Source of the DNA: Candidatus Aenigmatarchaeota archaeon
GTDB taxonomy: Archaea > Aenigmatarchaeota > Aenigmatarchaeia > QMZP01
Length of the DNA: 17,652 nucleotides
Direction of reading: 5' to 3'
Assembly: GCA_039091855.1 (NCBI GenBank)
Contig: JAWCLA010000013.1
Span: 1 to 17,652 of the forward strand
Below are positions 6,536-17,651 of the stretch, piece by piece. The notes under the pieces were generated by a model. That model was not told the DNA's origin and did not search any database. It worked only from the letters and a program-made list of their open reading frames with translations. How positions within the stretch are numbered: the first letter of the stretch is position 1; the number at the start of each line of letters is the position of its first letter. Made by a program: the position numbers and the translations under genes.

Positions 6536-8206
6536 TTACACTTCATCCTGGGATATAATCCTGCTCAACCATCTTGCCCTGCCACCTTCATGCACTCCTG
6601 TATCGGTTCTTTGGAACTTTATACTTGCATAAGCAATAAGGGCCGCTATTACTCCAATTGGTTTTGCAAGGGGTATTGATGACAAAACAAAAGCGAGGCT
6701 CAGGAGCGCAAATCCAGCTACGTGCAAAAGATGCTTGAATCCAGTTGACCAGGCAACGCTCTCCATCCTGAAATCCCTCAGCATAGAGATGGTTATCATT
6801 GTGTCATTCTTTCTCTGCTCTTCAATCTGTGCCTCAACGTCGGCACCCGCCTTTGAATATTTTTCCGATTTCTTCAGGTTTTCATAATACTCATTTATTT
6901 TCTCTATCCTATCCCTTATCTTACTGTAATTGTTTGGGGTTGGCAGGATTGAGGAAATCAAAAAGCAAATAAATGCGAAAAAGAAAAGGGGGCTCCCTAA
7001 AATGGCAGATGCAACAACACCTGCAAAAAGGAACCCTGCGCTTTTTGTTATATTTGATTTCAGGTTTCCTGTCATGTCAGAAAATATGTTGACCTTTCCT
7101 ATTGCACTAGGTACATATCTTACGCTTCTCACATCAAGTGAATTATCTTTTTCCTTGAGCCTCTCCATCTCCCATTTTAGCATCTCCCTTTTTGCCTCAT
7201 TCAGGTCATAATCAAACATCTGTCTTATGTATTTTGCATTCTCCTCTGGAACAACACCTGCCTTTACAAGAGCCCTTAGCCTCCTATCCAATTTGTCTCT
7301 ATCAAACCTTATGCGCTTGTAATGCGCAAATATCTTCCTTATTCTCTCTCTTGTTTCCCTTGTGCCTCCTGTGAAAGAAACCTTGTGACTCATTTCTTCA
7401 AGAGGCTTAAGCTCGAAATTTTGGTGAGCAGTATCAGGTGGCGGAGGTATTACAACCTTGTCAACATATTGGGAAAGGTATCCTCCTTCTGCTCCTTCTG
7501 CAATATACTCTCCTGCTTGTATTTTTTCAGGCTTAACTCGTCTTTCAGCCATCATATGGTATTCGCCAGGAGGAAGGTTGTAGATTTCATAATGACCCCT
7601 GTCATCGGTGGTTACACTTATATCAGCGTAAGGTCCCCAAATCCTAACCTTTGCACCAGGAACTCCCTTCCTCCATTTTGGAAATTGGGGATGATGTTTT
7701 CCCAAATAAGCTGTTTCTTCCGACCCTTCAAAATGGCCGTGCCAGACAAAACCTTCTATCGAAGGTTTAGGCTTTTGTTCATCTCCAAACAAATACTTTT
7801 CAGGCGAATACCTTTTGAATTTCAGATTTCTCTCAGGTGATTCCTTAAAGTCTTTGTATGCTTCATCTACCGCTCTTCTAATATGCTCGTCAAAACCGAA
7901 AGTAATATTGCCTATCCCCTTAGATTTATAAAAGGGTTTACTGAATTGCTCTCTCATCACTTTGATCGCTTCGTTTTTTGAATATGATTTAGCTCTTAAT
8001 AATTCTGCGGTTTCTTTAAGATTCAGATTTTTTAGATTCAGGTCAGAAGAGTGTTTTATTATCATATATATTTCTTCAGGTCTAAGATCACGATATTTAT
8101 CTTGATAATATGCTACTTGTTCAACCTCTTCATTGGTCGGTTTAAATCCTGCATCTAATAAAATTTTCTTTATTTTAGCTTCTGTTTCAGTAACCATCAC
8201 AACCAC
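6536..8206 (-). CDS. Membrane protein with an internal carboxypeptidase-regulatory-like (prealbumin-fold) domain and two C-terminal TM hairpins
   Basis: GVPGAKVRI...VTTDDRGHYEIYNLPPGEYHMMAE is the typical signature. Hydrophobic pairs near aa 390-420 and 490-530. The stop is 2 nt from the next start. The start may be ATG 8197. Confidence 0.75.
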   Translation of the reverse strand: MVVMVTETEAKIKKILLDAGFKPTNEEVEQVAYYQDKYRDLRPEEIYMIIKHSSDLNLKNLNLKETAELLRAKSYSKNEAIKVMREQFSKPFYKSKGIGNITFGFDEHIRRAVDEAYKDFKESPERNLKFKRYSPEKYLFGDEQKPKPSIEGFVWHGHFEGSEETAYLGKHHPQFPKWRKGVPGAKVRIWGPYADISVTTDDRGHYEIYNLPPGEYHMMAERRVKPEKIQAGEYIAEGAEGGYLSQYVDKVVIPPPPDTAHQNFELKPLEEMSHKVSFTGGTRETRERIRKIFAHYKRIRFDRDKLDRRLRALVKAGVVPEENAKYIRQMFDYDLNEAKREMLKWEMERLKEKDNSLDVRSVRYVPSAIGKVNIFSDMTGNLKSNITKSAGFLFAGVVASAILGSPLFFFAFICFLISSILPTPNNYSKIRDRIEKINEYYENLKKSEKYSKAGADVEAQIEEQRKNDTMITISMLRDFRMESVAWSTGFKHLLHVAGFALLSLAFVLSSIPLAKPIGVIAALIAYASIKFQRTDTGVHEGGRARWLSRIISQDEV

Positions 8207-8297
8207 TCAAAATACTCATTTGGCGTCTTACCTTCTATTAATAATTATGTTAATTTGAATAAAAATAAGATAGTCTTTATTTGATTGCGATAACTTA

Positions 8298-8370
8298 AAT
8301 CTGGAATTTGAGCAAAGGCCAAAGGCTGGCCTTTAACCTGTAAGCTTTGATGCCACTTAACTTCCAGATT
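8298..8370. other. Nested inverted-repeat element in the intergenic region
   Basis: Outer arms AATCTGGAATTTGAG (8298-8312) and CTTAACTTCCAGATT (8356-8370). Inner perfect hairpin AAAGGCCA-aaggc-TGGCCTTT (8314-8334). Confidence 0.55.
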
Positions 8371-8429
8371 GAAAGCGCTTCCAAATTAATAGTTTTACAG
8401 AATTAAATTCGCAGAGACCTTTGTTTCTA

Positions 8430-9521
8430 TTATTCTCGTGTTTCATTAATCTCTTTTTCAAGCTTTTTCATCTCCCTTTCCTTCTTTTCCTGAATCTCTT
8501 TTTCAAGCTTTTTCATCTCCCTTTCCTTCTTTTCCTGAATCTCTTTTTCAAGCTTTTTCATCTCGTACTCGCGTTTCTTTTCCAAGCGAGCTTGCCATTT
8601 GTCTAATAATGGTTTCATTGTTTGCCAGTTTATGACATCGTTCAAATATCTGCATTTGATCATGAACCTGTCTATCACAGCCTTGAAGTATCTTTCTTCA
8701 AGTATTTTCATAGCAGCGCATGAATCCATTATTTGATAAAAGAAATGTCCAACAACCTGATTTTTCGACGAATATTCTAGCAATTCCTCTAACTTCAAAT
8801 CCTTTATCTCCCTTTTAATTTCTGGGAATGGGTCTAGACTCATTGGCAAATAATAATAAAAAAGATACAGTGCAACGTTATCCCATGTGTCATTATTTTT
8901 TTCAACGTTTATTCTTCTGGAATTCAGTTCATTCAACAAGTTATGGCTTACAGTGAGGTATTTCGACTGTTCTGCCGACGTCGAATAATCCTTCATTCGC
9001 GAATGGTAAATCCTAAAAGAGTAATGCATTGATTCATGCAGTGGTGTATGCGTATTCTCATATGCCTTTTTAATAAAGCAAAATGGACCTGAATTAATCC
9101 CTCTTACACTTGTACCCATTTTTAAAATTCTGCAAAATTTATCCCATTTATCATCCGGCACAATGATAGTTACATCATAAAGTCGCAGTCCTCTTTCAGA
9201 TTCTAAATTGTTGAATTTTTTAATTTCAGCATTTTTAAGACAGTCTTTTATTTCAATTTTTTCTTCATCTGTTTCTGATAGACAAGTTGAAACATACTCA
9301 AAAAATGCATTTCTATTCTCATTTGCTAATTCCAAAAGAAGGTTTTGGTTCCTTTTAGCTGTTTTCAAGTCAGATAGAAGTCCTCTTACATTACTCATTA
9401 TAAGGGCCCGCTCCGCTTTAAAACTAAATCCACAAGAAGTGCAGTACTCATTTAATGTTTCGTTTAGCTTTCCACAACGTGGGCATTTCTTATACTTTAT
9501 TATTTTTATTTCTTCATCCAT
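8430..9521 (-). CDS. Zinc-ribbon + putative HExxH metallopeptidase + coiled-coil repeat protein
   Basis: N-terminal CPRC-x10-CTSC. PLHESMHYSF with a downstream NELNS as a candidate third ligand. C-terminal repeats of EKKEREMKKLEKEIQ. Confidence 0.7.
   Translation of the reverse strand: MDEEIKIIKYKKCPRCGKLNETLNEYCTSCGFSFKAERALIMSNVRGLLSDLKTAKRNQNLLLELANENRNAFFEYVSTCLSETDEEKIEIKDCLKNAEIKKFNNLESERGLRLYDVTIIVPDDKWDKFCRILKMGTSVRGINSGPFCFIKKAYENTHTPLHESMHYSFRIYHSRMKDYSTSAEQSKYLTVSHNLLNELNSRRINVEKNNDTWDNVALYLFYYYLPMSLDPFPEIKREIKDLKLEELLEYSSKNQVVGHFFYQIMDSCAAMKILEERYFKAVIDRFMIKCRYLNDVINWQTMKPLLDKWQARLEKKREYEMKKLEKEIQEKKEREMKKLEKEIQEKKEREMKKLEKEINETRE
8448..8564. repeat. Perfect 45-bp coding tandem repeat, 2.6 copies
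   Basis: The unit AATCTCTTTTTCAAGCTTTTTCATCTCCCTTTCCTTCTTTTCCTG occurs at 8448 and 8493, with a 27-bp partial copy at 8538. Confidence 0.95.
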
Positions 9522-9565
9522 TTATTATAATTATATAAATCTCTAATAAAAAATTGTTTTCTGAT

Positions 9566-10156
9566 TTACAATTCAAAAGATCTCTCATAATTGTATTCCG
9601 GCAGGTTGTCCTTCAGTTCTCGTGCGTGCCCGTCCCCTATTATGACCAAATCAGGCATGTATTTCTTTATTTTCTCAAGCATATGTACCTCTCGCTTCTT
9701 GTTCGAACTTTTCCATAGTTTCATCACGTCTTCCAACCCCTTGGTGTTATTCAGAATATCAAGAATGTTCTTGTATCTGTTTACCAGGAATTCGATATCC
9801 CTTATTAGCTCAGGTGACATATAGGGAGTGATTTTCATATTCCTTACTTCTGCCTCTTCGATTTCCACCTGCCTTCTTGTGATTTTCCCTTCGTAAACGG
9901 CTTTCGCCACCTCTATTGCATAATGGTAATCAACTGTAGCGGAATCTTCCAGCGGAATGACCTTGGTGCCTTTATCTTTGAGATAGGAAGTAATATCGCT
10001 GAAGAAGAAGATTGTATAACCAATATCCTCCTTTTCCATATAGTCTTCAGGTAGCTCAATGCCGGCTATGGAAGGGATATAGATATCTATTCTGCCCTTT
10101 ACCTTTTCCAACTCCTGTTCGCTCTTATGTCCAACCCCCAATAATATTTTATTCAT
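9566..10156 (-). CDS. Hypothetical protein, possible TraB/ChaN/EreA-like fold
   Basis: The motif order LLGVGH ... GIE ... RE.HM...I ... VIIGDGH matches that superfamily. ATG 10156 is preferred over TTG 10177 because the TATA box lies 22 nt upstream. Confidence 0.55.
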   Translation of the reverse strand: MNKILLGVGHKSEQELEKVKGRIDIYIPSIAGIELPEDYMEKEDIGYTIFFFSDITSYLKDKGTKVIPLEDSATVDYHYAIEVAKAVYEGKITRRQVEIEEAEVRNMKITPYMSPELIRDIEFLVNRYKNILDILNNTKGLEDVMKLWKSSNKKREVHMLEKIKKYMPDLVIIGDGHARELKDNLPEYNYERSFEL

Positions 10157-10178
10157 ATAACTATCTAAAAGTAACAAT

Positions 10179-10337: not shown

Positions 10338-10847
10338 TCAAGCAAACACATAGAAAGTTGACTTTCCCGAGCCGCACTTTCTCAGTATCTTCATCCTTAC
10401 CATTTTGTTCAGGTCCTGTGTTGCAGTCCTTTTGGAAACCCTGTTTATCTGCCTGTATTCCGATGCTGTTATCTGCCCGTACCTGTAAACGTAATCTATT
10501 GCCTTTCTTTGTTTTTTGTCCGTTCCCCTTGGATATTCTGTGCTTCCGAAATCGTAGTCAATACCTTTTGAAGAGCCGGGGACAGCCCCAACCTTCCTTT
10601 TCATCATTCCCCTGTACATAGCCTCCAACACGTCATGTCCGCCGAACCCGGCGAAAAACGCCAGCAGATGGCTTTCAGGCTCTATTATTATTGCGGTTAT
10701 TATTCCTATTATAAGGGAGGTGGTTATGGTGAACAAAACCTTGTCCCTGCTGAAGCCGAAGCCAGTCTTTCTTTTTGATATACCTATCAGAACTCTCATC
10801 AGCCCGCCTGCAACCGCTGCAACGACAGTTTCCGTAAGCGTCAGCAT
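10338..10847 (-). CDS. Small 3-TM (holin-like) domain fused to a C-terminal winged HTH
   Basis: N-terminal AGGLMRVLIG ... AGFGGHDVLE membrane module. C-terminal ITASEYRQINRVSKRTATQDLNKMVRMKILRKCGSGKSTFY is a DeoR/HTH_11-like wHTH. Confidence 0.7.
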   Translation of the reverse strand: MLTLTETVVAAVAGGLMRVLIGISKRKTGFGFSRDKVLFTITTSLIIGIITAIIIEPESHLLAFFAGFGGHDVLEAMYRGMMKRKVGAVPGSSKGIDYDFGSTEYPRGTDKKQRKAIDYVYRYGQITASEYRQINRVSKRTATQDLNKMVRMKILRKCGSGKSTFYVFA

Positions 10848-10855
10848 GTTTTCCC

Positions 10856-11137
10856 CTAAATTGCTATTTCCCTTTTCCTCAAAATCTCGAAAAGGCTGTT
10901 CATCAGGTCAACACCAACATAGCCAACCAGCACCGCAGCAAACACAACCTTCCAGGAAACCATAAGGTAGAGAGAGCCCTCAAAATAGAAAAAAGCAAAG
11001 GCAGAAACTACACCAACAAACCCTGTGATTGCCAAAACCAGCGGTATGTTCTTGTTTTTTGGCTTACCGTGGGAAACAAAGCCCAACAACGACCTCAAGA
11101 GCCCCCCAACAAATCCCCAGAGAGCAACCTCAATCAT
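10856..11137 (-). CDS. Small 3-TM membrane protein, paralogue of the N-terminus of the next gene (holin-like)
   Basis: VGGLLRSLLG ... VGYVGVDLMN aligns by eye with AGGLMRVLIG ... AGFGGHDVLE. Basic C-terminal tail. Confidence 0.7.
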   Translation of the reverse strand: MIEVALWGFVGGLLRSLLGFVSHGKPKNKNIPLVLAITGFVGVVSAFAFFYFEGSLYLMVSWKVVFAAVLVGYVGVDLMNSLFEILRKREIAI

Positions 11138-11175: not shown

Positions 11176-12924
11176 TCACACAACTGCCTCTGTCTGTTTC
11201 AGGTAGGCAGCGTAATCCCTCCTGAAAGTCATCACGTAGTCAACGAGCTGCCTTGTCTCTATTGGCAGGCGCTTCCTTATCTTGCTGTAATCACTTCCAT
11301 ACCTGTTTACGAGCCTTTTCAGGTTGCCGTAACCATAATTGTATGCAGCCAGGGCAATCCTCTCATCACCAAACTTGTCAATAAGGAATCTCAAATAGTT
11401 TGTCCCGCACCTGGAATTGACATCAGGGTCAAAAAGACTTTCCCTCGTTTTGTCCCAGCCATATCCCTCTGCTGTTGAGGGAAGAAGCTGCATCAAACCA
11501 ACCGCCCCCGATGGGCTCACAAGATTCGGGTTCCATCCGCTTTCCTTGTGGACAAGGGCAAAAACCATATCCCTTTGCAGGGAGTTTCTCATCGCATTTG
11601 CGGAAACTATCCTTCTTAAATTGTCAGTTCCCGGAACAGGTATCTCGGGCTTGACAAGGGAAACAGGGACGTATCCTGCATCAGTTTTTATGTCAGGCTC
11701 CTCCTGAACCATAGCATAAAACAACATTTCGCAGTAGCTTTTTTCATAACAGGGCTCCGTGTCTATCACATTCCCGTTGCTGTCATATGAAACAAATGCG
11801 AGAAGTTTGGTGTTGTATTCCAAAACCGCCGCTTCCTTCATAAGCTCCTCCGGAGAGTAGCTGAAAACAAAGACCAGAGTCAATGGGCTCATCACAACCC
11901 TCTCCCCATCATACACCGGGAAAGTCTGGTCATCCCTTGTGTTGGTTATATCAAACCTGACTTTGACATCAGGTATGAATTCCAGCTCAGACTTGACCCC
12001 TCCCTGAAACACCTCGTGGCTTTTCTCAGTCCATAGAAGGTTAATCTTCTGCACATCAACCGAGATGTCATAATCCACGCCTGTCTCTGAAAGCTTGTGT
12101 AGTCCTGTTTTTGCCTTTTCTATGAAGGTTTTGTTGATTTCAGAAAGCTTTCTTCCGAGCTCCTCTTCTGACGTTGCCGTTATCTGTTCAGGAGGGTTCG
12201 TTTCTTCAATAGCCCTGTCCACGACAGATCGCGCTGAACTGAAAGCTTCCAAACCCTTTGCATAAATACCGTAACAATCTATCGAATACTCTCCCTGCAA
12301 AAACCCGTATTTTTCCAGCCTTATCCTCTCGCCGCTTTCCTGCATTTTTTCAATCCAGAAGTTGCTGTTGTTCCAAGCCCCAACGGACAGCTGGTAGGGC
12401 TGATACATCACCACGTCCACTTCATAAGCAGGGATGTTAACAAGATAGTCAGTCATGAACCTGTAGGGGCTTTTCCTGTAAAGCTCGAGGTTGCTCTTTA
12501 TGGATTTTTTCAGCTCGCCTTCAATCTCTTCCTCTTCAGGATAAGTTCCTACGGAACTCCATATTGCATATCCATTGTATGTTGGCTTTCCCTTCAGGCT
12601 CTCCCAACCACCATTCCTTAGGGTGTCATAACAAGCCTGATAGGTGGAATAAGCCAGAGACGTTTCCATATACAGCTTTGCCGCTTCAAGGGCGTTGCCC
12701 ATTATGTGAATCTCAGAGCGGACTTCTATGTCTTTCTCTATCTGCCCCGTCTTCAGGTAGGGAATGTTTATGGCTGCAATTAAAATTGCTATTATAATTC
12801 CTGCTGTGATTGCAGGCAAAACGAGGCTCGTGCCTTTCAGCTTTACGGAAGTAAGGCGAGCGTCGCCAAAAGTCCTATCAATTTCACTCTTATTTCCGGG
12901 CTCTTTTTTCATGCTCAATCCCAT
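11176..12924 (-). CDS. Pilin-like (class III signal) protein with a C-terminal SLT lytic transglycosylase domain
   Basis: KLKG followed by the hydrophobic TSLVLPAITAGIIIAILIAAI. SLT motifs: ALVHKESGWNP (catalytic Glu), SPSGAVGLMQL, LFDP..N...GTNYL, ALAAYNYG and ETRQLV. Alternative start ATG 12912. Confidence 0.9.
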   Translation of the reverse strand: MGLSMKKEPGNKSEIDRTFGDARLTSVKLKGTSLVLPAITAGIIIAILIAAINIPYLKTGQIEKDIEVRSEIHIMGNALEAAKLYMETSLAYSTYQACYDTLRNGGWESLKGKPTYNGYAIWSSVGTYPEEEEIEGELKKSIKSNLELYRKSPYRFMTDYLVNIPAYEVDVVMYQPYQLSVGAWNNSNFWIEKMQESGERIRLEKYGFLQGEYSIDCYGIYAKGLEAFSSARSVVDRAIEETNPPEQITATSEEELGRKLSEINKTFIEKAKTGLHKLSETGVDYDISVDVQKINLLWTEKSHEVFQGGVKSELEFIPDVKVRFDITNTRDDQTFPVYDGERVVMSPLTLVFVFSYSPEELMKEAAVLEYNTKLLAFVSYDSNGNVIDTEPCYEKSYCEMLFYAMVQEEPDIKTDAGYVPVSLVKPEIPVPGTDNLRRIVSANAMRNSLQRDMVFALVHKESGWNPNLVSPSGAVGLMQLLPSTAEGYGWDKTRESLFDPDVNSRCGTNYLRFLIDKFGDERIALAAYNYGYGNLKRLVNRYGSDYSKIRKRLPIETRQLVDYVMTFRRDYAAYLKQTEAVV

Positions 12925-14006
12925 TGCTTGAACGTTATCTTTCCCCTCACGTTTCCTGATTTTGCCCCAGGAAGTGGGATGTCAGTCTCGTAGCTTCTTA
13001 CAGATTTCCCTTCTATAATTCCTGAAACGTATTTGCAGGCAGCAACCTCCTTATGTTCGCAACTGCCCGAAACTCCCGTAAGGTCTAAAAATAAACACGG
13101 ATTTATGGCAGTTTTGTCAGACGGGAATTTTTCTGTCCCGACCTCAAAATGCAGGTGATAGCCCGTCTGTCCAACAGTGAAACCCGTGTTGCCTGACTTT
13201 CCGATTATTCTCCCATTCTTTCCCGCGACAGGTATTTCATCACCCACCTTCACATTGATAGAACTAAGGTGGGCATAAAACGTGTAGTAATCATATTTTT
13301 CAGGCTTTCCTGCAGAAACCAATCCAGGTATTGGATGTCCTATCACCACAAGATTCCCATAACCACCATAAGAACCTGCAAAAACCACCTTCCCGGGCGC
13401 GGCTGCATACACATCCACTTCCTTTCCTGCTATGTCAATTCCACCATGGCAGTCACATTTCCTGTCTCCCAAATCCCTGCCGCCAAACCCCGATGTTATC
13501 TCTTTGGAGTCTGAGGGCCACTTAAGCTTGCCGTTATTCTCTATTTTCTTTTTCAGTTCTTCAGGAACCTCCTGAAATGAGGTTGGACAGTTTAAAATGA
13601 CTTTCCTTGTTTCATCTGTCAGAGTCTCGGGCACGTTCTTGCTGAACTTCACTGAGCTTCCTGCTGCTGTAAAAGTGAAGTCATAACCCCTGTAAGCCTC
13701 GTCCATAGTTTTCTGCAAGGGATTCAGGCGGCTGGACCTTTCCTCTGCTATCCCTTCAGCAACATACCTGCCCAAAAGCTCTATATGCTTCACATCTGTG
13801 GTTTTCGCGTTAAGCAGGCTGACAAGCTCTGTGCCTATGTCATCATTAACCATAAATATGTGAAGCGTTCCCTTGATGCTTATTACCTTATAAACAATGC
13901 CAAAATAGTTGGCTATGAAATCGCCCACCAAAACTATTGCCGCTATTATAATAACCATCAATAGTAGAAGCATAAAATCCACTGCCGACTTCCTTCTCCT
14001 ACTCAT
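12915..14006 (-). CDS. Pilin-like protein with an M23 family zinc endopeptidase domain
   Basis: Basic leader MSRRRKS followed by the hydrophobic AVDFMLLLLMVIIIAAIVLVG. M23 motifs: WP...ITSGFGGR, HGGID (HxxxD), GGYGNLVVIGH, YAHL, SGNTG, HLHFEV (HxH) and INP. Confidence 0.92.
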   Translation of the reverse strand: MSRRRKSAVDFMLLLLMVIIIAAIVLVGDFIANYFGIVYKVISIKGTLHIFMVNDDIGTELVSLLNAKTTDVKHIELLGRYVAEGIAEERSSRLNPLQKTMDEAYRGYDFTFTAAGSSVKFSKNVPETLTDETRKVILNCPTSFQEVPEELKKKIENNGKLKWPSDSKEITSGFGGRDLGDRKCDCHGGIDIAGKEVDVYAAAPGKVVFAGSYGGYGNLVVIGHPIPGLVSAGKPEKYDYYTFYAHLSSINVKVGDEIPVAGKNGRIIGKSGNTGFTVGQTGYHLHFEVGTEKFPSDKTAINPCLFLDLTGVSGSCEHKEVAACKYVSGIIEGKSVRSYETDIPLPGAKSGNVRGKITFKQWD

Positions 14007-14466
14007 ACACATTCACCTTAAGGCTTGCTAGATAGTTTCTTTCGCCATCCGTAATGGTAACGAAAATCCTGTGCTTGTATTTGCCTGACTCATCATAATT
14101 GAAGTCATAGTAATCTCCCTTTTTCGGGCCTCCCTTGACAAGCCCGCCTTCCAGATACTCCACCCTTGCCCCTGTTTTTGCATTACATTTGCATAAATCC
14201 GGCGAACATATTTGGCTGCCTTCTTTACTTTTAAGAAGGCTTGCCTGTATTGTCCCGTCCATTCCAGTAAGGCAGCTCTTTACTATGTGTGCAGCATCTA
14301 CTGCTTCTATCTGCTTCTCAACTATCCTCATGTCAGCCGCATAGTTCAGCATGTTTGCCTGCACGAACATAATAAGCGCGACAACCGCACCAACGAATAT
14401 CACTATGCCCAATGGGGTTGTCACATATTCGTAATCTCCTTTCAGCCTCTTTGAAAATTTCAGCAT
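13999..14466 (-). CDS. Pilin-like protein (class III signal peptide)
   Basis: MLKFSKRLKG followed by DYEYVTTPLGIVIFVGAVVALIMFV, then a small Cys-containing globular domain. ATG 14466 overlaps the upstream stop. Confidence 0.75.
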   Translation of the reverse strand: MLKFSKRLKGDYEYVTTPLGIVIFVGAVVALIMFVQANMLNYAADMRIVEKQIEAVDAAHIVKSCLTGMDGTIQASLLKSKEGSQICSPDLCKCNAKTGARVEYLEGGLVKGGPKKGDYYDFNYDESGKYKHRIFVTITDGERNYLASLKVNVYE

Positions 14467-15479
14467 AATTTGCACCCCTGAAGCGCGCAGGTGTTTTGAG
14501 CATAACAGCTGTTTCTGTATGAAAGAACACCATTAACATATCCTCTTGTCTGTTTTGGGAGGCATTCGCAATTCGTTATATCTTGCAATGTTGACTTGGC
14601 ACCAAGCCCGCATATCTTTATGCATTCGTGGCAGTTCTGCTTATTACCTTCACTGCATTTGTCTTTTTCAAGAAGCCATCCCGGACCTGTGTTGTAAGCA
14701 ACCAGTCCGAGCTCCACGCTGCCAAAAGCCTTTATTTGGTCCGAAAGGTATTTTGTTCCCAACATAACATTGGTCCTGGCATCAAAAACATTCTTGTCAG
14801 CCTGACCTGTATCAATCCCTTCCGCGGTGCTTGGCATAACCTGCATAAGCCCAACTGCACCTTTTGAAGATATTGTGTAAGGGTTTCCCTCCTTGCAGTC
14901 TTTGCAGTGGCAAGCCTTGCTCTCCTGCGTTATAACCGCTTTTATGAGGTTTGCGTCCACATTGTACTTCTCCGAAGCCTCTTTCACGTAACTCTTTATC
15001 TCTTCCATAGATGGCTGTCTTGTGCATATTTCGCCTGTTGGAATCCATTCCCACCCACCTGTTATCTCCCCCTTCAGAGAAATCTTCCCGTCCAAGCCCT
15101 TTATAACAGAAATCTTGTTGGCTGTTATAGGAGAAACAGGGTCTATCTTTACAAGGAGCGGCACTTCAAAGAAATTACCCTTCTCGTCATAAGTTACCTT
15201 CACGTACATCACGCCCTTCTTGTCATATATCTCAACCCTCATCGGCTGGGAACCCTTGGTAAGGCTGAAATCCTTCTCCACCCTTCCAGCATCCATAGTT
15301 GATAGGGTGTTCACAGAAATCGCAATCATATTTGCCATCACCCTTGCCTGCCCTTCCCTGCTCGATTCAAGTCCGGCAAGCAACCTTACCACAACGACGA
15401 GGGCAAGCATGCAGATAACAAGGGCTCCCATGAGGAAAATCATCCTTTCCTTGGCTTGAGCCTTTTTCACTTTGCGCAT
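14460..15479 (-). CDS. Pilin-like protein with a Cys-rich SLT lytic transglycosylase domain
   Basis: Class III signal MRKVKKA|QAKERMIFLMGALVICMLALVVVV. SLT motifs: YNVDANLIKAVITQES, SSKGAVGLMQVMPST, NVMLGTKYL, AYNTGPG and QTRGYV. Confidence 0.92.
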   Translation of the reverse strand: MRKVKKAQAKERMIFLMGALVICMLALVVVVRLLAGLESSREGQARVMANMIAISVNTLSTMDAGRVEKDFSLTKGSQPMRVEIYDKKGVMYVKVTYDEKGNFFEVPLLVKIDPVSPITANKISVIKGLDGKISLKGEITGGWEWIPTGEICTRQPSMEEIKSYVKEASEKYNVDANLIKAVITQESKACHCKDCKEGNPYTISSKGAVGLMQVMPSTAEGIDTGQADKNVFDARTNVMLGTKYLSDQIKAFGSVELGLVAYNTGPGWLLEKDKCSEGNKQNCHECIKICGLGAKSTLQDITNCECLPKQTRGYVNGVLSYRNSCYAQNTCALQGCKLC

Positions 15480-16186
15480 GGGTATTCAACTATACGATAA
15501 ACATATCCTGCCTTATTGTTTTCACTCACAGGAGAATCCACCTTCAGCGGCTTGTAGCAGTATTCAAAAGCCTTCTCGTTTTTTAGTATGTCCATCTTGA
15601 GTTGGGAAAGGTCGTTGGGATTGCAAATTCCTTTGGGTATGCAGTAGGGATAGTTGCTTCCAACAGTATTGTCAAATGGTACATCAAGCGTCTTGCATAT
15701 AGGCTTTATCCTCACTATGTATTGCCTTCCCTCTTCCCAAACTTGTTTAAAACTCAGGTATGGATGTTTTATCCATTCAGAAAACTTTGAGAAAAATCCC
15801 TTGTCCTTTCTTGCCTCCTCTGCCAGCGTCTTGTAGGGAATTACCAGTATGTAAGCCTTCACAGTATCAGAGTTCGCGCACCTGTCATTTATCACCTCGG
15901 AAAAGCCAAGCCCCTTGTCATCATCCTTGTTGAACATTATAATACCACCAACACAGTCGCCTGCTGTTATCTTCAAGACTTCCTGAGATTTCTCATCGTT
16001 TGAGTTTTTTGCTTTTGCAAGGCTTGATTTTATGGAATCTGCTGTTTTGTCAGCATCCGCCCAGCACTTTCCCTGGGTTATCTCGATGAACTTGTTCAGT
16101 GCCCAAGATATAACAACGGCAACAAGTATTATCCCAAAAGCAATGAAAATTATCACCACAAGCGCAGGTATCGCAGCCTTTCTCAT
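15467..16186 (-). CDS. Pilin-like protein (class III signal peptide) with a Cys-containing globular domain
   Basis: MRKA followed by AIPALVVIIFIAFGIILVAVVISW. ATG 16186 is preferred over GTG 16207 because it gives a canonical short leader. Confidence 0.75.
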   Translation of the reverse strand: MRKAAIPALVVIIFIAFGIILVAVVISWALNKFIEITQGKCWADADKTADSIKSSLAKAKNSNDEKSQEVLKITAGDCVGGIIMFNKDDDKGLGFSEVINDRCANSDTVKAYILVIPYKTLAEEARKDKGFFSKFSEWIKHPYLSFKQVWEEGRQYIVRIKPICKTLDVPFDNTVGSNYPYCIPKGICNPNDLSQLKMDILKNEKAFEYCYKPLKVDSPVSENNKAGYVYRIVEYPCAK

Positions 16187-16235
16187 AGTATAGTTATTGG
16201 CTTCCACGCTTAAATTGATGAGAAATGTGGCTTTA

Positions 16236-16715: not shown

Positions 16716-17651
16716 TTAACCTATTCCTCCATCGGGCCAGTTATGCTGGCTTACAAGCTGGGCGAATCCTAGAAGACAATTGGCTGCTGTGCTGGCTGCC
16801 CATGTCGCAGGATGGGGTATCCTTTTAGCGATGGCGTCTATGGCAAACACGGTTGTTGTTGCCGCAACGCCATTGAACCATGGCTCTACCGCATAACAGT
16901 AGTTAGGGTTATCCTTTGTAGACTTGTAATTTTTGGCATTGACCGTTGTCGCTACGCCTCTTACCCAGCAGTTCCAGTACGAGACGGCGTCTATATCCCC
17001 GTTGGTGTTCTGATCATCGAACACGAAGGCCTTGGCATCTTCGGGTATCCTGTTATCGACTATCTGATTTGGGAATAGCGCAAACTCATCCCATCTTCCA
17101 TCCAGATTGCTATCCTTGAAGAATGCAAGGGAACTCCTTCCAGGATCGCCTGAGAATATCACCATCTCAAATACATTAGGGTAATATTTTTCTACGCCAT
17201 TGAAATAATATTCGTCGTTGTCATTACTTTTGTAACCATCGATCCACTGCCATTTGGTGTCATATAATCTCTCCTTTATCCAGATAATCTCTCCTGCTTC
17301 CAGAGACGAAACACCCTGGATGCCTGTGTCCCTCTTGAACTTTTCATATGCATCTATCTTGTAGACATCAGCGGGATCGATGTAAATGAGGCAAAACTCA
17401 GAGTATTGTTCATTCGTGTTTTCTTTAAAGAGGTTTTCCAAGATATTAACCCCCTTTATCTTGCTGAGGGTTTCAGGGGTCAAGCCCAGGACTTCCACGA
17501 AGTCTGAATAAGAATTGCCGCAAACTATTTGAAGCCCTTGGATTTTCTGTTGTCCGTTATCAAATAAATTCGCCTTGTAGCAGACTAATCTGTCAGGTAT
17601 GCCGGAGCAGTCGCTTCTTTCTATATCCTGCAGATACGCTGTGGAGCTGGC
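16716..17651 (-). CDS. C-terminal part of a larger, probably extracellular protein, 5'-truncated by the window edge
   Basis: The frame is open upstream of GTG 17498 to the window end (ASSTAYLQDIERSDCSGIPDRLVC...). It has Dx[DN]xDG-like loops (DSNLDGRWDE, DQNTNGDIDA) and an Ala-rich hydrophobic C-terminus ending NWPDGGIG. Confidence 0.8.
   Translation of the reverse strand, partial: ASSTAYLQDIERSDCSGIPDRLVCYKANLFDNGQQKIQGLQIVCGNSYSDFVEVLGLTPETLSKIKGVNILENLFKENTNEQYSEFCLIYIDPADVYKIDAYEKFKRDTGIQGVSSLEAGEIIWIKERLYDTKWQWIDGYKSNDNDEYYFNGVEKYYPNVFEMVIFSGDPGRSSLAFFKDSNLDGRWDEFALFPNQIVDNRIPEDAKAFVFDDQNTNGDIDAVSYWNCWVRGVATTVNAKNYKSTKDNPNYCYAVEPWFNGVAATTTVFAIDAIAKRIPHPATWAASTAANCLLGFAQLVSQHNWPDGGIG

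Follow-up and report, generated by a model that had tools for sequence, protein, structure and literature searches.

A predicted M23 endopeptidase cassette within a pilin-like scaffold protein of a Candidatus Aenigmatarchaeota archaeon

Why would an archaeon encode a bacterial-type zinc endopeptidase in the middle of a protein that starts like a pilin? The question is posed by a 17,652-nt stretch of DNA from a Candidatus Aenigmatarchaeota archaeon (contig JAWCLA010000013.1 of assembly GCA_039091855.1; hereafter the window), which is a complete 17.6-kb contig of a 689-kb genome, 84% complete. On its minus strand, at 12915..14012 in the open reading frame (ORF) list (stop codon at 12915-12917), lies a gene for a 365-amino-acid (aa) scaffold protein with an inserted M23 peptidase domain, here called gene C. 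Comparison with its relatives, together with structure prediction, supports an interpretation of the product as a carrier with a cassette, i.e., a small scaffold that also exists on its own and that here is split by an enzyme.

The enzyme was recognized by several independent routes. Pfam matches Peptidase_M23 (PF01551) to residues 189-295 of gene C (E = 1.1e-20; 74.1 bits against a cut-off of 28.7), the genome search giving the same result, and among PDB sequences lysostaphin aligns with residues 174-314, with matching catalytic motifs. An AlphaFold model of the protein, built on 26 homologs (mean predicted local distance difference test, pLDDT, of 73.9), superposes on solved M23/LytM domains over approximately residues 147-312; 66 chains reached Z ≥ 8, the best being 7qrl_A (Z 16.4; root-mean-square deviation of 2.1 Å over 133 aligned residues), with LytM (2b13_A) at Z 15.5. 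From these matches and the invariant catalytic residues, the M23 zinc endopeptidase domain was mapped to residues 160-314 (13071..13535, minus strand), in line with the ~13100-13520 proposed in a first-pass annotation made from the sequence alone. That annotation had also pointed to a full set of zinc ligands plus a YAHL motif. Indeed, the translation contains HGGID (H189, D193), YAHL (H248) and HLH (H286, H288), and the 26-member full-length family shows no variation at H189, D193, H286 and H288, with H248 conserved to at least 90%. From what is described for LytM and lysostaphin, we take H189, D193 and H288 to be the zinc ligands and H248 and H286 the catalytic histidines. By these motifs, the domain looks catalytically intact and unlike a degenerate LytM factor. 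Further invariant positions in the same family are C142, C186, C188, C306, C318, C326 and H320, as well as P346, P348 and G349 in the tail; they include every cysteine that had been listed in the annotation as flanking the enzyme on both sides. Of 51 scaffold-borne M23 domains, 37 have a CxCH motif ahead of the first zinc ligand, vs. none of 94 other M23 domains. This pattern suggests that the six invariant cysteines and H320 (nucleotides ~13035-13588) may form disulfides or a second metal site peculiar to the clade. The Pfam scan of gene C gave nothing besides Peptidase_M23 above cut-off, and thus no LysM and no wall-binding domain, nor was a coiled coil seen, as the annotation had remarked.

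That this enzyme interrupts another protein is indicated by homologs that lack it. Searching 301 genomes of the phylum with the gene C protein returned full-length matches and, in addition, matches confined to residues ~2-119 in ORFs of 117-180 aa. In ten relative loci the same gene row is present, and in the bare cases the C slot is filled by a protein of 134-180 aa without M23. These bare C proteins consist of the N-module, including a conserved D-x-G-x-E, and a tail motif (I/L-P-L/V-P-G) that is followed by ~12-20 residues to the end. When eight bare proteins were compared with the 26 M23-bearing ones, the N-modules aligned at an hhalign probability of 99.4% (E = 7.5e-22), and an alignment of the C-terminal ends only placed residues 340-364 of the gene C protein against the final 25 of the bare proteins (probability of 97%, E ~1e-11). 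An AlphaFold model of a bare scaffold (L019, 151 aa, built on 112 sequences; mean pLDDT 89.1) comprises a long helix (5-60), two short helices and four strands (101-106, 112-117, 123-137 and 140-150) with loops of 2-5 residues, and the tail motif sits in strands 3 and 4. In the window model, strands at 109-116 and 119-125 precede the insert and strands at 336-346 and 356-364 follow it. As the strand positions on either side of M23 match the bare model, the cassette appears to interrupt the hairpin of strands 2 and 3; and since the tail aligns to the end of the bare scaffold, where strands 3 and 4 are formed, it would belong to the scaffold and not to M23.

Accordingly partitioned, the gene C protein (all coordinates on the minus strand) begins with a short basic leader, residues 1-9 (13986..14012), which ends in K-S and is a candidate class-III (prepilin-type) signal given the family consensus RKG/RKA. 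It is followed by a hydrophobic N-terminal helix, residues 10-44 (13881..13985), placed by AlphaFold at 6-44 and matching helix 5-60 of the bare model, and by the scaffold N-module, residues 45-125 (13638..13880), which has a conserved DDxGTE motif, two helices and strands b1 (109-116) and b2 (119-125) and is supported by hhalign and the models. The M23 domain is bracketed by an entry linker, residues 126-159 (13536..13637), with the invariant C142 and low pLDDT at 132-147, and an exit linker, residues 315-335 (13008..13070), with the invariant C318, H320 and C326; both are missing from bare scaffolds. The tail, residues 336-365 (12918..13007), carries the IPLPG motif and, by the tail-to-tail hhalign alignment and the models, scaffold strands b3 and b4. 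Thus, homology and predicted structure show a cassette of ~210 residues (entry linker, M23 and the Cys/His-rich exit linker) inserted in the strand 2-3 loop of the scaffold, and the last 30 residues of gene C would be the scaffold's own strands 3 and 4. The first-pass annotation had envisaged an enzyme plugged as a cassette into a scaffold loop, which the contiguous bare homologs and both hhalign results corroborate. It had drawn the pilin-like N-terminus too long, at ~160 aa: residues 1-125 are scaffold, and residues 126-159 are linker of the insert. Its proposal that the tail completes a pilin fold holds insofar as the tail supplies strands 3 and 4 of the scaffold's sheet; the scaffold model itself found no pilin fold match (see below). 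A split-chain complex test (residues 30-128, 129-329 and, as partner, 330-365) scored 0.23 against a mark of 0.32 and was not used as evidence.

How far this arrangement extends was seen from a search of 1.84 billion cluster representatives with a bare-scaffold profile, which returned 215 proteins at E ≤ 0.001. Among the best 150 of these, 112 are shorter than 200 aa and 38 are longer, so that insert-free homologs, which the annotation had suggested seeking, are the majority of these 150; they occupy the same operon position. M23 is the only Pfam domain in 31 of the 38 longer proteins (25 of 32 newly scanned plus six already known homologs). The others carry SLT (P0148 and P0155), a glucosaminidase (P0173), Peptidase_M15_4 (P0250), or NlpC/P60, M23 and a carboxypeptidase-like domain (P0256); P0187 has an extension resembling that of P0256 with no Pfam match. 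P0183, a coiled-coil GTPase, was discarded as a false positive. The enzyme follows strand 2 and precedes the tail in P0148 and P0173; in P0155 the SLT domain seems to sit one loop earlier, since a strand-2-like segment comes after it. P0250, P0256 and P0187 have a complete scaffold first, with the enzymes or the extension appended after the tail. A motif count over 57 long scaffold proteins gave 49 with M23 and then the tail motif, three with another insert and then the tail motif, two with the motif before an appended module, and three in which the pattern did not find the motif; in the short proteins, the motif falls within the last 35 residues in 101 of 112. Appended forms recur in family f4 of the window's order, where a complete scaffold precedes M23 (L040, L041) or M15_4 (L042, L045). 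A 592-aa protein from the window's family (L043; G196:C37, 239-2014) combines an inserted GDSL module (157-338), the tail (377-393) and an appended M23 (445-536), so that one scaffold C protein bears two enzyme modules. SLT, glucosaminidase and GDSL inserts inside the sheet, each followed by the tail, are the other inserts that the annotation had thought worth looking for, and its idea of a swappable warhead agrees with these bare, inserted and appended forms carrying different enzyme families on one scaffold.

As for where the peptidase came from, a tree of 145 M23 domains has a single branch with all 51 scaffold-borne ones to one side (minimum number of changes, 1; none of 500 label shuffles as low), albeit in an unrooted tree in which this branch has a support of 0 in the Shimodaira-Hasegawa-like approximate likelihood-ratio test. 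The data are compatible with a single origin of scaffold-borne M23, and the appended M23 of family f4 may reflect a separate event. The nearest bacterial matches are only 30-48% identical over the domain. The donor lineage that the annotation had hoped to name from such a phylogeny did not emerge, the branch being without support and the tree unrooted.

Gene C is not the only armed member of its row. On the minus strand the genes run large protein, X, A, B, C, D, a conserved cluster specific to one archaeal order; gene B overlaps the start of gene C by 14 nt and gene D overlaps its end by 10 nt. Gene A (14460..15479; 339 aa) encodes a pilin-like scaffold A with a C-terminal SLT lytic transglycosylase domain (Pfam; residues 164-274, E = 2.2e-23), and gene D (11176..12924; 582 aa) a scaffold D with a C-terminal SLT (Pfam; residues 442-543, E = 6.4e-26). 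From their translations, gene B (13999..14475) encodes a 158-aa pilin-like protein with K-G and acidic residues followed by a hydrophobic helix, and gene X (15467..16207), the first small gene of the cluster, a 246-aa protein with K-A and a hydrophobic N-terminus. Homologs of gene B were found by phmmer in seven of the ten relative loci, and those of gene X lie upstream of A in L035 and L036. The row starts with a gene for a large protein, of which the contig end leaves only the 3′ part (16716..17651); it was identified by its match to a 973-aa protein that adjoins the cluster in L030 (E = 3.4e-10). In L032, L033 and L038 the cluster is bordered by proteins of 969-1005 aa that resemble one another at the N-terminus. 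A third SLT domain of the same genome is encoded outside the window, at C7:10247-10558 on the minus strand, in a 299-aa open frame (E = 3.4e-19).

Across the 11 loci compared (the window and its ten relative loci), the carriers vary in what they bear. Scaffold A is either bare (137-159 aa) or 297-396 aa long with SLT at its C-terminus, scaffold C has M23 or no module, and scaffold D carries SLT in the window and L035, GDSL plus Amidase_3 in L031 (L031:7765-9834) and PG_binding_1 in L038 only (L038:9776-10939), or is bare (249-377 aa), with nothing added in five of the ten relative loci. Bare scaffold A homologs of 137-138 aa were matched in L033 and L034, two of the four loci without any enzyme module. 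Six of the seven armed loci pair an identified glycan-cutting module, SLT on A, with a peptide- or amide-cutting one, gene A of L039 not having been identified; the window itself, with SLT on A, M23 on C and SLT on D, brings glycan- and peptide-cutting families together. By family annotation, each added module falls in a murein-specific family. Judged by these architectures, scaffolds A, C and D would act as interchangeable carriers for SLT, M23, glucosaminidase, GDSL/SGNH, Amidase_3, M15, NlpC/P60 and PG_binding_1. Neither Pfam nor NCBIfam has a family for scaffolds A, B, C, D or X.

The scaffold is largely a feature of the window's order, where it was found in 29 of 34 genomes of family f1, 3 of 3 of f2, 22 of 23 of f3, 10 of 11 of f4 and in the single f5 genome not at all; outside the order a single genome of 229 gave a match (E = 6e-4). 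Each genome with the scaffold has one match. By open-frame length, 21 of the 66 matches are at most 200 aa (two of them at contig ends), 44 are longer, and in the remaining one, a frame of 236 aa, the ORF has 218 aa and no insert. Gene C itself has 25 full-length homologs (30-76% identity, 87-99% coverage), three of which (P0015, P0020 and P0023) carry the source labels Candidatus Aenigmarchaeota/Aenigmatarchaeota. The row is syntenic across four families of the order and flanked by housekeeping genes, which, with its single copy, speaks against a mobile or viral origin; we therefore argue that the cluster is chromosomal and vertically inherited.

Is the carrier a pilin? The products of the whole row (X, A, B, C and D) begin with a few charged residues ending in K or R followed by G, A or S, and then a hydrophobic helix. 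In the bare C scaffolds, [KR][GAS] stands right before the helix in 101 of 112 (78 KG, 16 KA, 5 KS and 2 RG), and Q is the commonest residue at +1; of the 11 remaining proteins, eight seem to be starts miscalled inside the helix and three have no clear helix. An A24 prepilin peptidase was found in 72 of 76 genomes of the order, in 69 of them over the Pfam cut-off, and in all 23 high-quality genomes, and the window's own genome has five matches to the T2SSE ATPase and six to the T2SSF platform protein. The bare model, with its helix 5-60 and four strands, is compatible with a pilin fold. In addition, several small prepilin-like proteins next to one of ~1000 aa make up a gene set that presumably resembles bacterial minor-pilin/tip operons. 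We thus refer to the carrier as pilin-like; its assembly into filaments is an inference, and so is its position at the tip, for which the bulky modular pilins of bacteria are the model. Small genes of family f3 (98-163 aa; L039:2855-3148, L039:3188-3562, L037:5179-5490 and L038:5501-5989), located a few kb upstream of the cluster and without NCBIfam match, encode M-R-x-S-L-E and then a hydrophobic helix, and may be candidates for the major filament subunit.

Taken as a whole, the best explanation, which we regard as probable, is an M23 cassette in a pilin-like carrier that is displayed outside the cell and digests bacterial walls. The gene C product would be a modular pilin-like surface protein whose carrier, when bare, measures ~150 aa and consists of a leader ending in K-G/A/S, the hydrophobic helix, a small helical part and an antiparallel sheet of four strands. 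The genome's A24-type prepilin peptidase would process the carriers, which would then be displayed on the cell exterior, most likely as part of a type IV filament's minor-pilin/tip complex, and failing that held in place by their N-terminal helix. There, SLT modules would cut the glycan strands and M23 the peptide cross-links in the wall of a neighboring bacterium. The peptidoglycan targeted would be that of neighboring bacteria; the archaeon does not appear to make its own, and no Mur ligase and no penicillin-binding protein transpeptidase were found in its 84%-complete genome. From the enzyme families, a foreign, bacterial target of the hydrolases seems likely, and wall digestion could serve attachment, access to a host, or feeding.

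Several observations weigh against this picture. The leader of the window protein ends in K-S, a rarer variant (5 of 112), and the A24 candidate of its own genome, on contig C37 (288 aa), scored 25.8 bits in the genome search, just below the cut-off of 26.5, and 19.5 bits when its 281-aa ORF was scanned alone. Neither in the window nor in the relative loci does a gene for the ATPase, the platform protein or the peptidase adjoin the cluster. Foldseek gave no match of the bare model to the PDB at E ≤ 0.001, and a wide VIA search found no pilin, with 13 chains at Z ≥ 5, none at Z ≥ 8 and all of them PAS/Cache-type or generic (best Z 6.1, PAS/Cache-type sensor domains, in the range of noise). The scaffolds have no Pfam or NCBIfam family match to pilins; a profile search of PDB sequences brought up only a Pyrococcus archaellin at E = 0.44 and one match at E = 4.2. 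The nearest ESM Atlas clusters are unnamed archaeal hypothetical proteins (0.95-0.96), and the nearest named ones, DUF7287 (0.84) and DUF7288 (0.79), were set aside as below the level that counts. As far as the main text of a 2026 survey goes, type IV filament systems are scarce in DPANN (PMC13705601). Moreover, four of the 11 loci (L030, L032, L033 and L034) are wholly unarmed, so wall hydrolysis is not the scaffold's core function. The missing fold and family match, the cluster without assembly genes and the scarcity of filament systems would suit the same architecture without a filament, with the N-terminal helix as a membrane anchor and the cluster as a membrane-bound ecto-enzyme complex on the archaeal surface. 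We consider this unlikely, though worth keeping in view: a plain anchor needs no K/R and G/A/S before its helix, as is present in most bare scaffolds and in all cluster proteins, and the nearly universal prepilin peptidase, the several ATPase/platform pairs in the genome and the presumed likeness to tip operons all point away from it. Of the minor pilin that the first-pass annotation had proposed, the class-III-type signal and the predicted topology stand, and the expected match to a pilin fold or family is missing.

Other explanations concern the enzyme and its target. If the tail were an extension of M23 or disordered, gene C would encode an ordinary N-terminally anchored M23 enzyme. The tail does reach only pLDDT 51-74 in the window model, which also counts against the cassette, the exit linker seems to travel with M23, and a similar cysteine spacing follows the appended M23 in L040 and L041; bare scaffolds, though, have the tail directly after strand 2 with no M23 present, it also comes after SLT, glucosaminidase and GDSL inserts, and in family f4 it stands ahead of the appended M23. 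This reading is already contradicted by the comparative data and is scarcely credible. We also give very little credence to a degenerate, EnvC/NlpD-like LytM domain that activates or binds another hydrolase, even though DipM and EnvC, with LytM domains that are non-catalytic, are among the best structural matches, the top weak NCBIfam matches are DipM, ActS and NlpD, and an SLT partner is encoded on either side of gene C. Degenerate LytM factors are defined by loss of zinc-ligand or catalytic residues, and here, unlike in EnvC, NlpD and DipM, every zinc ligand and both catalytic histidines are in place in gene C and conserved in its family. Finally, the hydrolases might have as their substrate the archaeon's own envelope or that of an archaeal partner with pseudomurein, or constitute a viral or mobile lysis module. 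A low-GC stretch in the window (described below) hints at foreign DNA; set against this are the lack of murein synthesis genes in the 84%-complete genome, the bacterial-murein-specific annotation of SLT, Amidase_3, glucosaminidase, M15, NlpC/P60 and PG_binding_1, and the single-copy cluster that is syntenic across four families between housekeeping flanks, so that such a role is highly improbable.

Returning to the displayed, wall-digesting carrier, a bolder version can be formulated, which we put forward tentatively and with more doubt than belief: the whole order would build a type IV filament with a plug-and-play peptidoglycan-drill tip of minor pilins, the loops and ends of three carriers accepting hydrolase cassettes and lineages switching between unarmed and armed states. 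If true, these DPANN archaea would physically breach bacteria, in cross-domain episymbiosis or predation, rather than archaea.

Elsewhere in the window, positions 8001-10000 (ORFs 8430-9521 and 9566-10177) have a guanine-plus-cytosine (GC) content of 33-35%, against 40-48% in the rest, and may be foreign or fast-evolving DNA; a 363-aa ORF in this stretch has an N-terminal zinc ribbon (weak Pfam matches) and C-terminal near-identical Lys/Glu-rich repeats. Downstream of gene D, at 10338-11137, two small membrane proteins of 93 and 169 aa are encoded, the second with a weak winged-helix-like C-terminus. Both are kept in a genome of the same genus (G107; L035:17083-17960; E = 3.4e-32 and 3.6e-88), where the pair lies ~7 kb from the cluster on the opposite strand. 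Five DNA sequencing runs from two studies, all hot-spring metagenomes, are listed as containing the stretch, and one of them may be its source; there is no RNA run among those listed.

How does gene C relate to known systems? Modular type IV pilins of bacteria come in two layouts: PilB (vWA) and PilC (lectin) of S. sanguinis carry appended modules, and GspK of the type II secretion system (alpha-domain) and Thermus ComZ (beta-solenoid) have modules inserted in the pilin beta-sheet; a tip location was proposed for the bulky ones (PMC8179133). The proteins described here would likewise consist of a small pilin-type carrier with a class-III signal that displays a module not specific to pilus biology, and they too exhibit both modes of grafting, sheet insertion as in GspK/ComZ and appending as in PilB (PMC8179133). 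As with GspK and ComZ, the carrier exists alone and the module interrupts the sheet, as judged from the bare homologs and from insert flanks that align with strands 2 and 3. Unlike those pilins, the carriers are archaeal and bear peptidoglycan hydrolases instead of adhesion or DNA-binding modules (PMC8179133), the same scaffold occurs bare or with at least six enzyme families, and its pilin fold is only predicted to be compatible. In the portion of that paper's text drawn on here, one peptidase signature appears, and neither peptidoglycan nor archaea do (PMC8179133).

Archaeal peptidoglycan hydrolases are known as well. Woldo and Danwoldo of Halogranum salarium kill bacteria (PMC12352652) and, like gene C, combine a bacterial-type M23 in an archaeon, bacterial walls as proposed target and domain shuffling; they differ in being secreted and in having PG_binding_1 wall-binding domains (PMC12352652). 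The underlying screen required a known wall-binding domain and reported M23 in ten archaeal genomes, four of them Nanoarchaeia, with no mention of pilins in the text consulted (PMC12352652). Lacking such a domain and built on a pilin-like scaffold, the gene C protein falls outside the modular peptidoglycan hydrolases as defined there, and a screen of this type would have passed it over. In Woesearchaeota and other DPANN, lytic murein transglycosylases were read as signs of a predatory or 'vampiristic' lifestyle (PMC9723730), which shares with our case the murein-degrading enzymes and the inferred attack on bacteria; those are large GH23 proteins from CAZy screening, and the sections of that article drawn on here contain no M23, pilin-like carriers, insertion or armed/unarmed operon series (PMC9723730).

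Among the structural matches to the gene C M23 domain are the phi29 tail protein gp13 (3csq) and the LytM domain of PrgK from a type IV secretion system (8s0u), both at Z 10.8, in which a nanomachine that penetrates or assembles has a wall-cutting M23 fixed to its end, in many cases together with a glycan-cutting module. Their carriers are unrelated, and those enzymes open the wall for machine passage or DNA injection, whereas here the producer appears to be without a murein wall. With lysostaphin and LytM, the domain shares the HxxxD and HxH zinc motifs, the catalytic histidine and the fold, and it differs from them by having no SH3b or other targeting domain, by the CxCH before the first zinc ligand and by being embedded as an insert. 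The main text of the 2026 survey of archaeal type IV filaments mentions neither hydrolases nor modular pilins (PMC13705601). Full-text searches of the literature, covering main texts, found no description of pilin-borne murein hydrolases in archaea. Gene C thus joins two known kinds, modular pilins and archaeal peptidoglycan hydrolases, in a combination for which we found no published description in archaea.

For most DPANN archaea, neither the partners nor the way of life is known. A conserved apparatus on the cell surface with murein-specific enzymes as its only modules, if it exists as predicted, would be concrete and testable evidence that one lineage engages bacteria, and its scaffold would carry the idea of the modular pilin over to archaea and to enzymes as cargo. 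Such proteins would escape any screen for archaeal antibacterial hydrolases in which a known wall-binding domain is required. One small carrier that occurs bare, with inserted modules and with appended ones, drawn from at least six enzyme families, amounts to a natural series; it shows a loop and a terminus that tolerate grafts, and may be useful both for the study of domain-insertion evolution and for the design of enzyme display.

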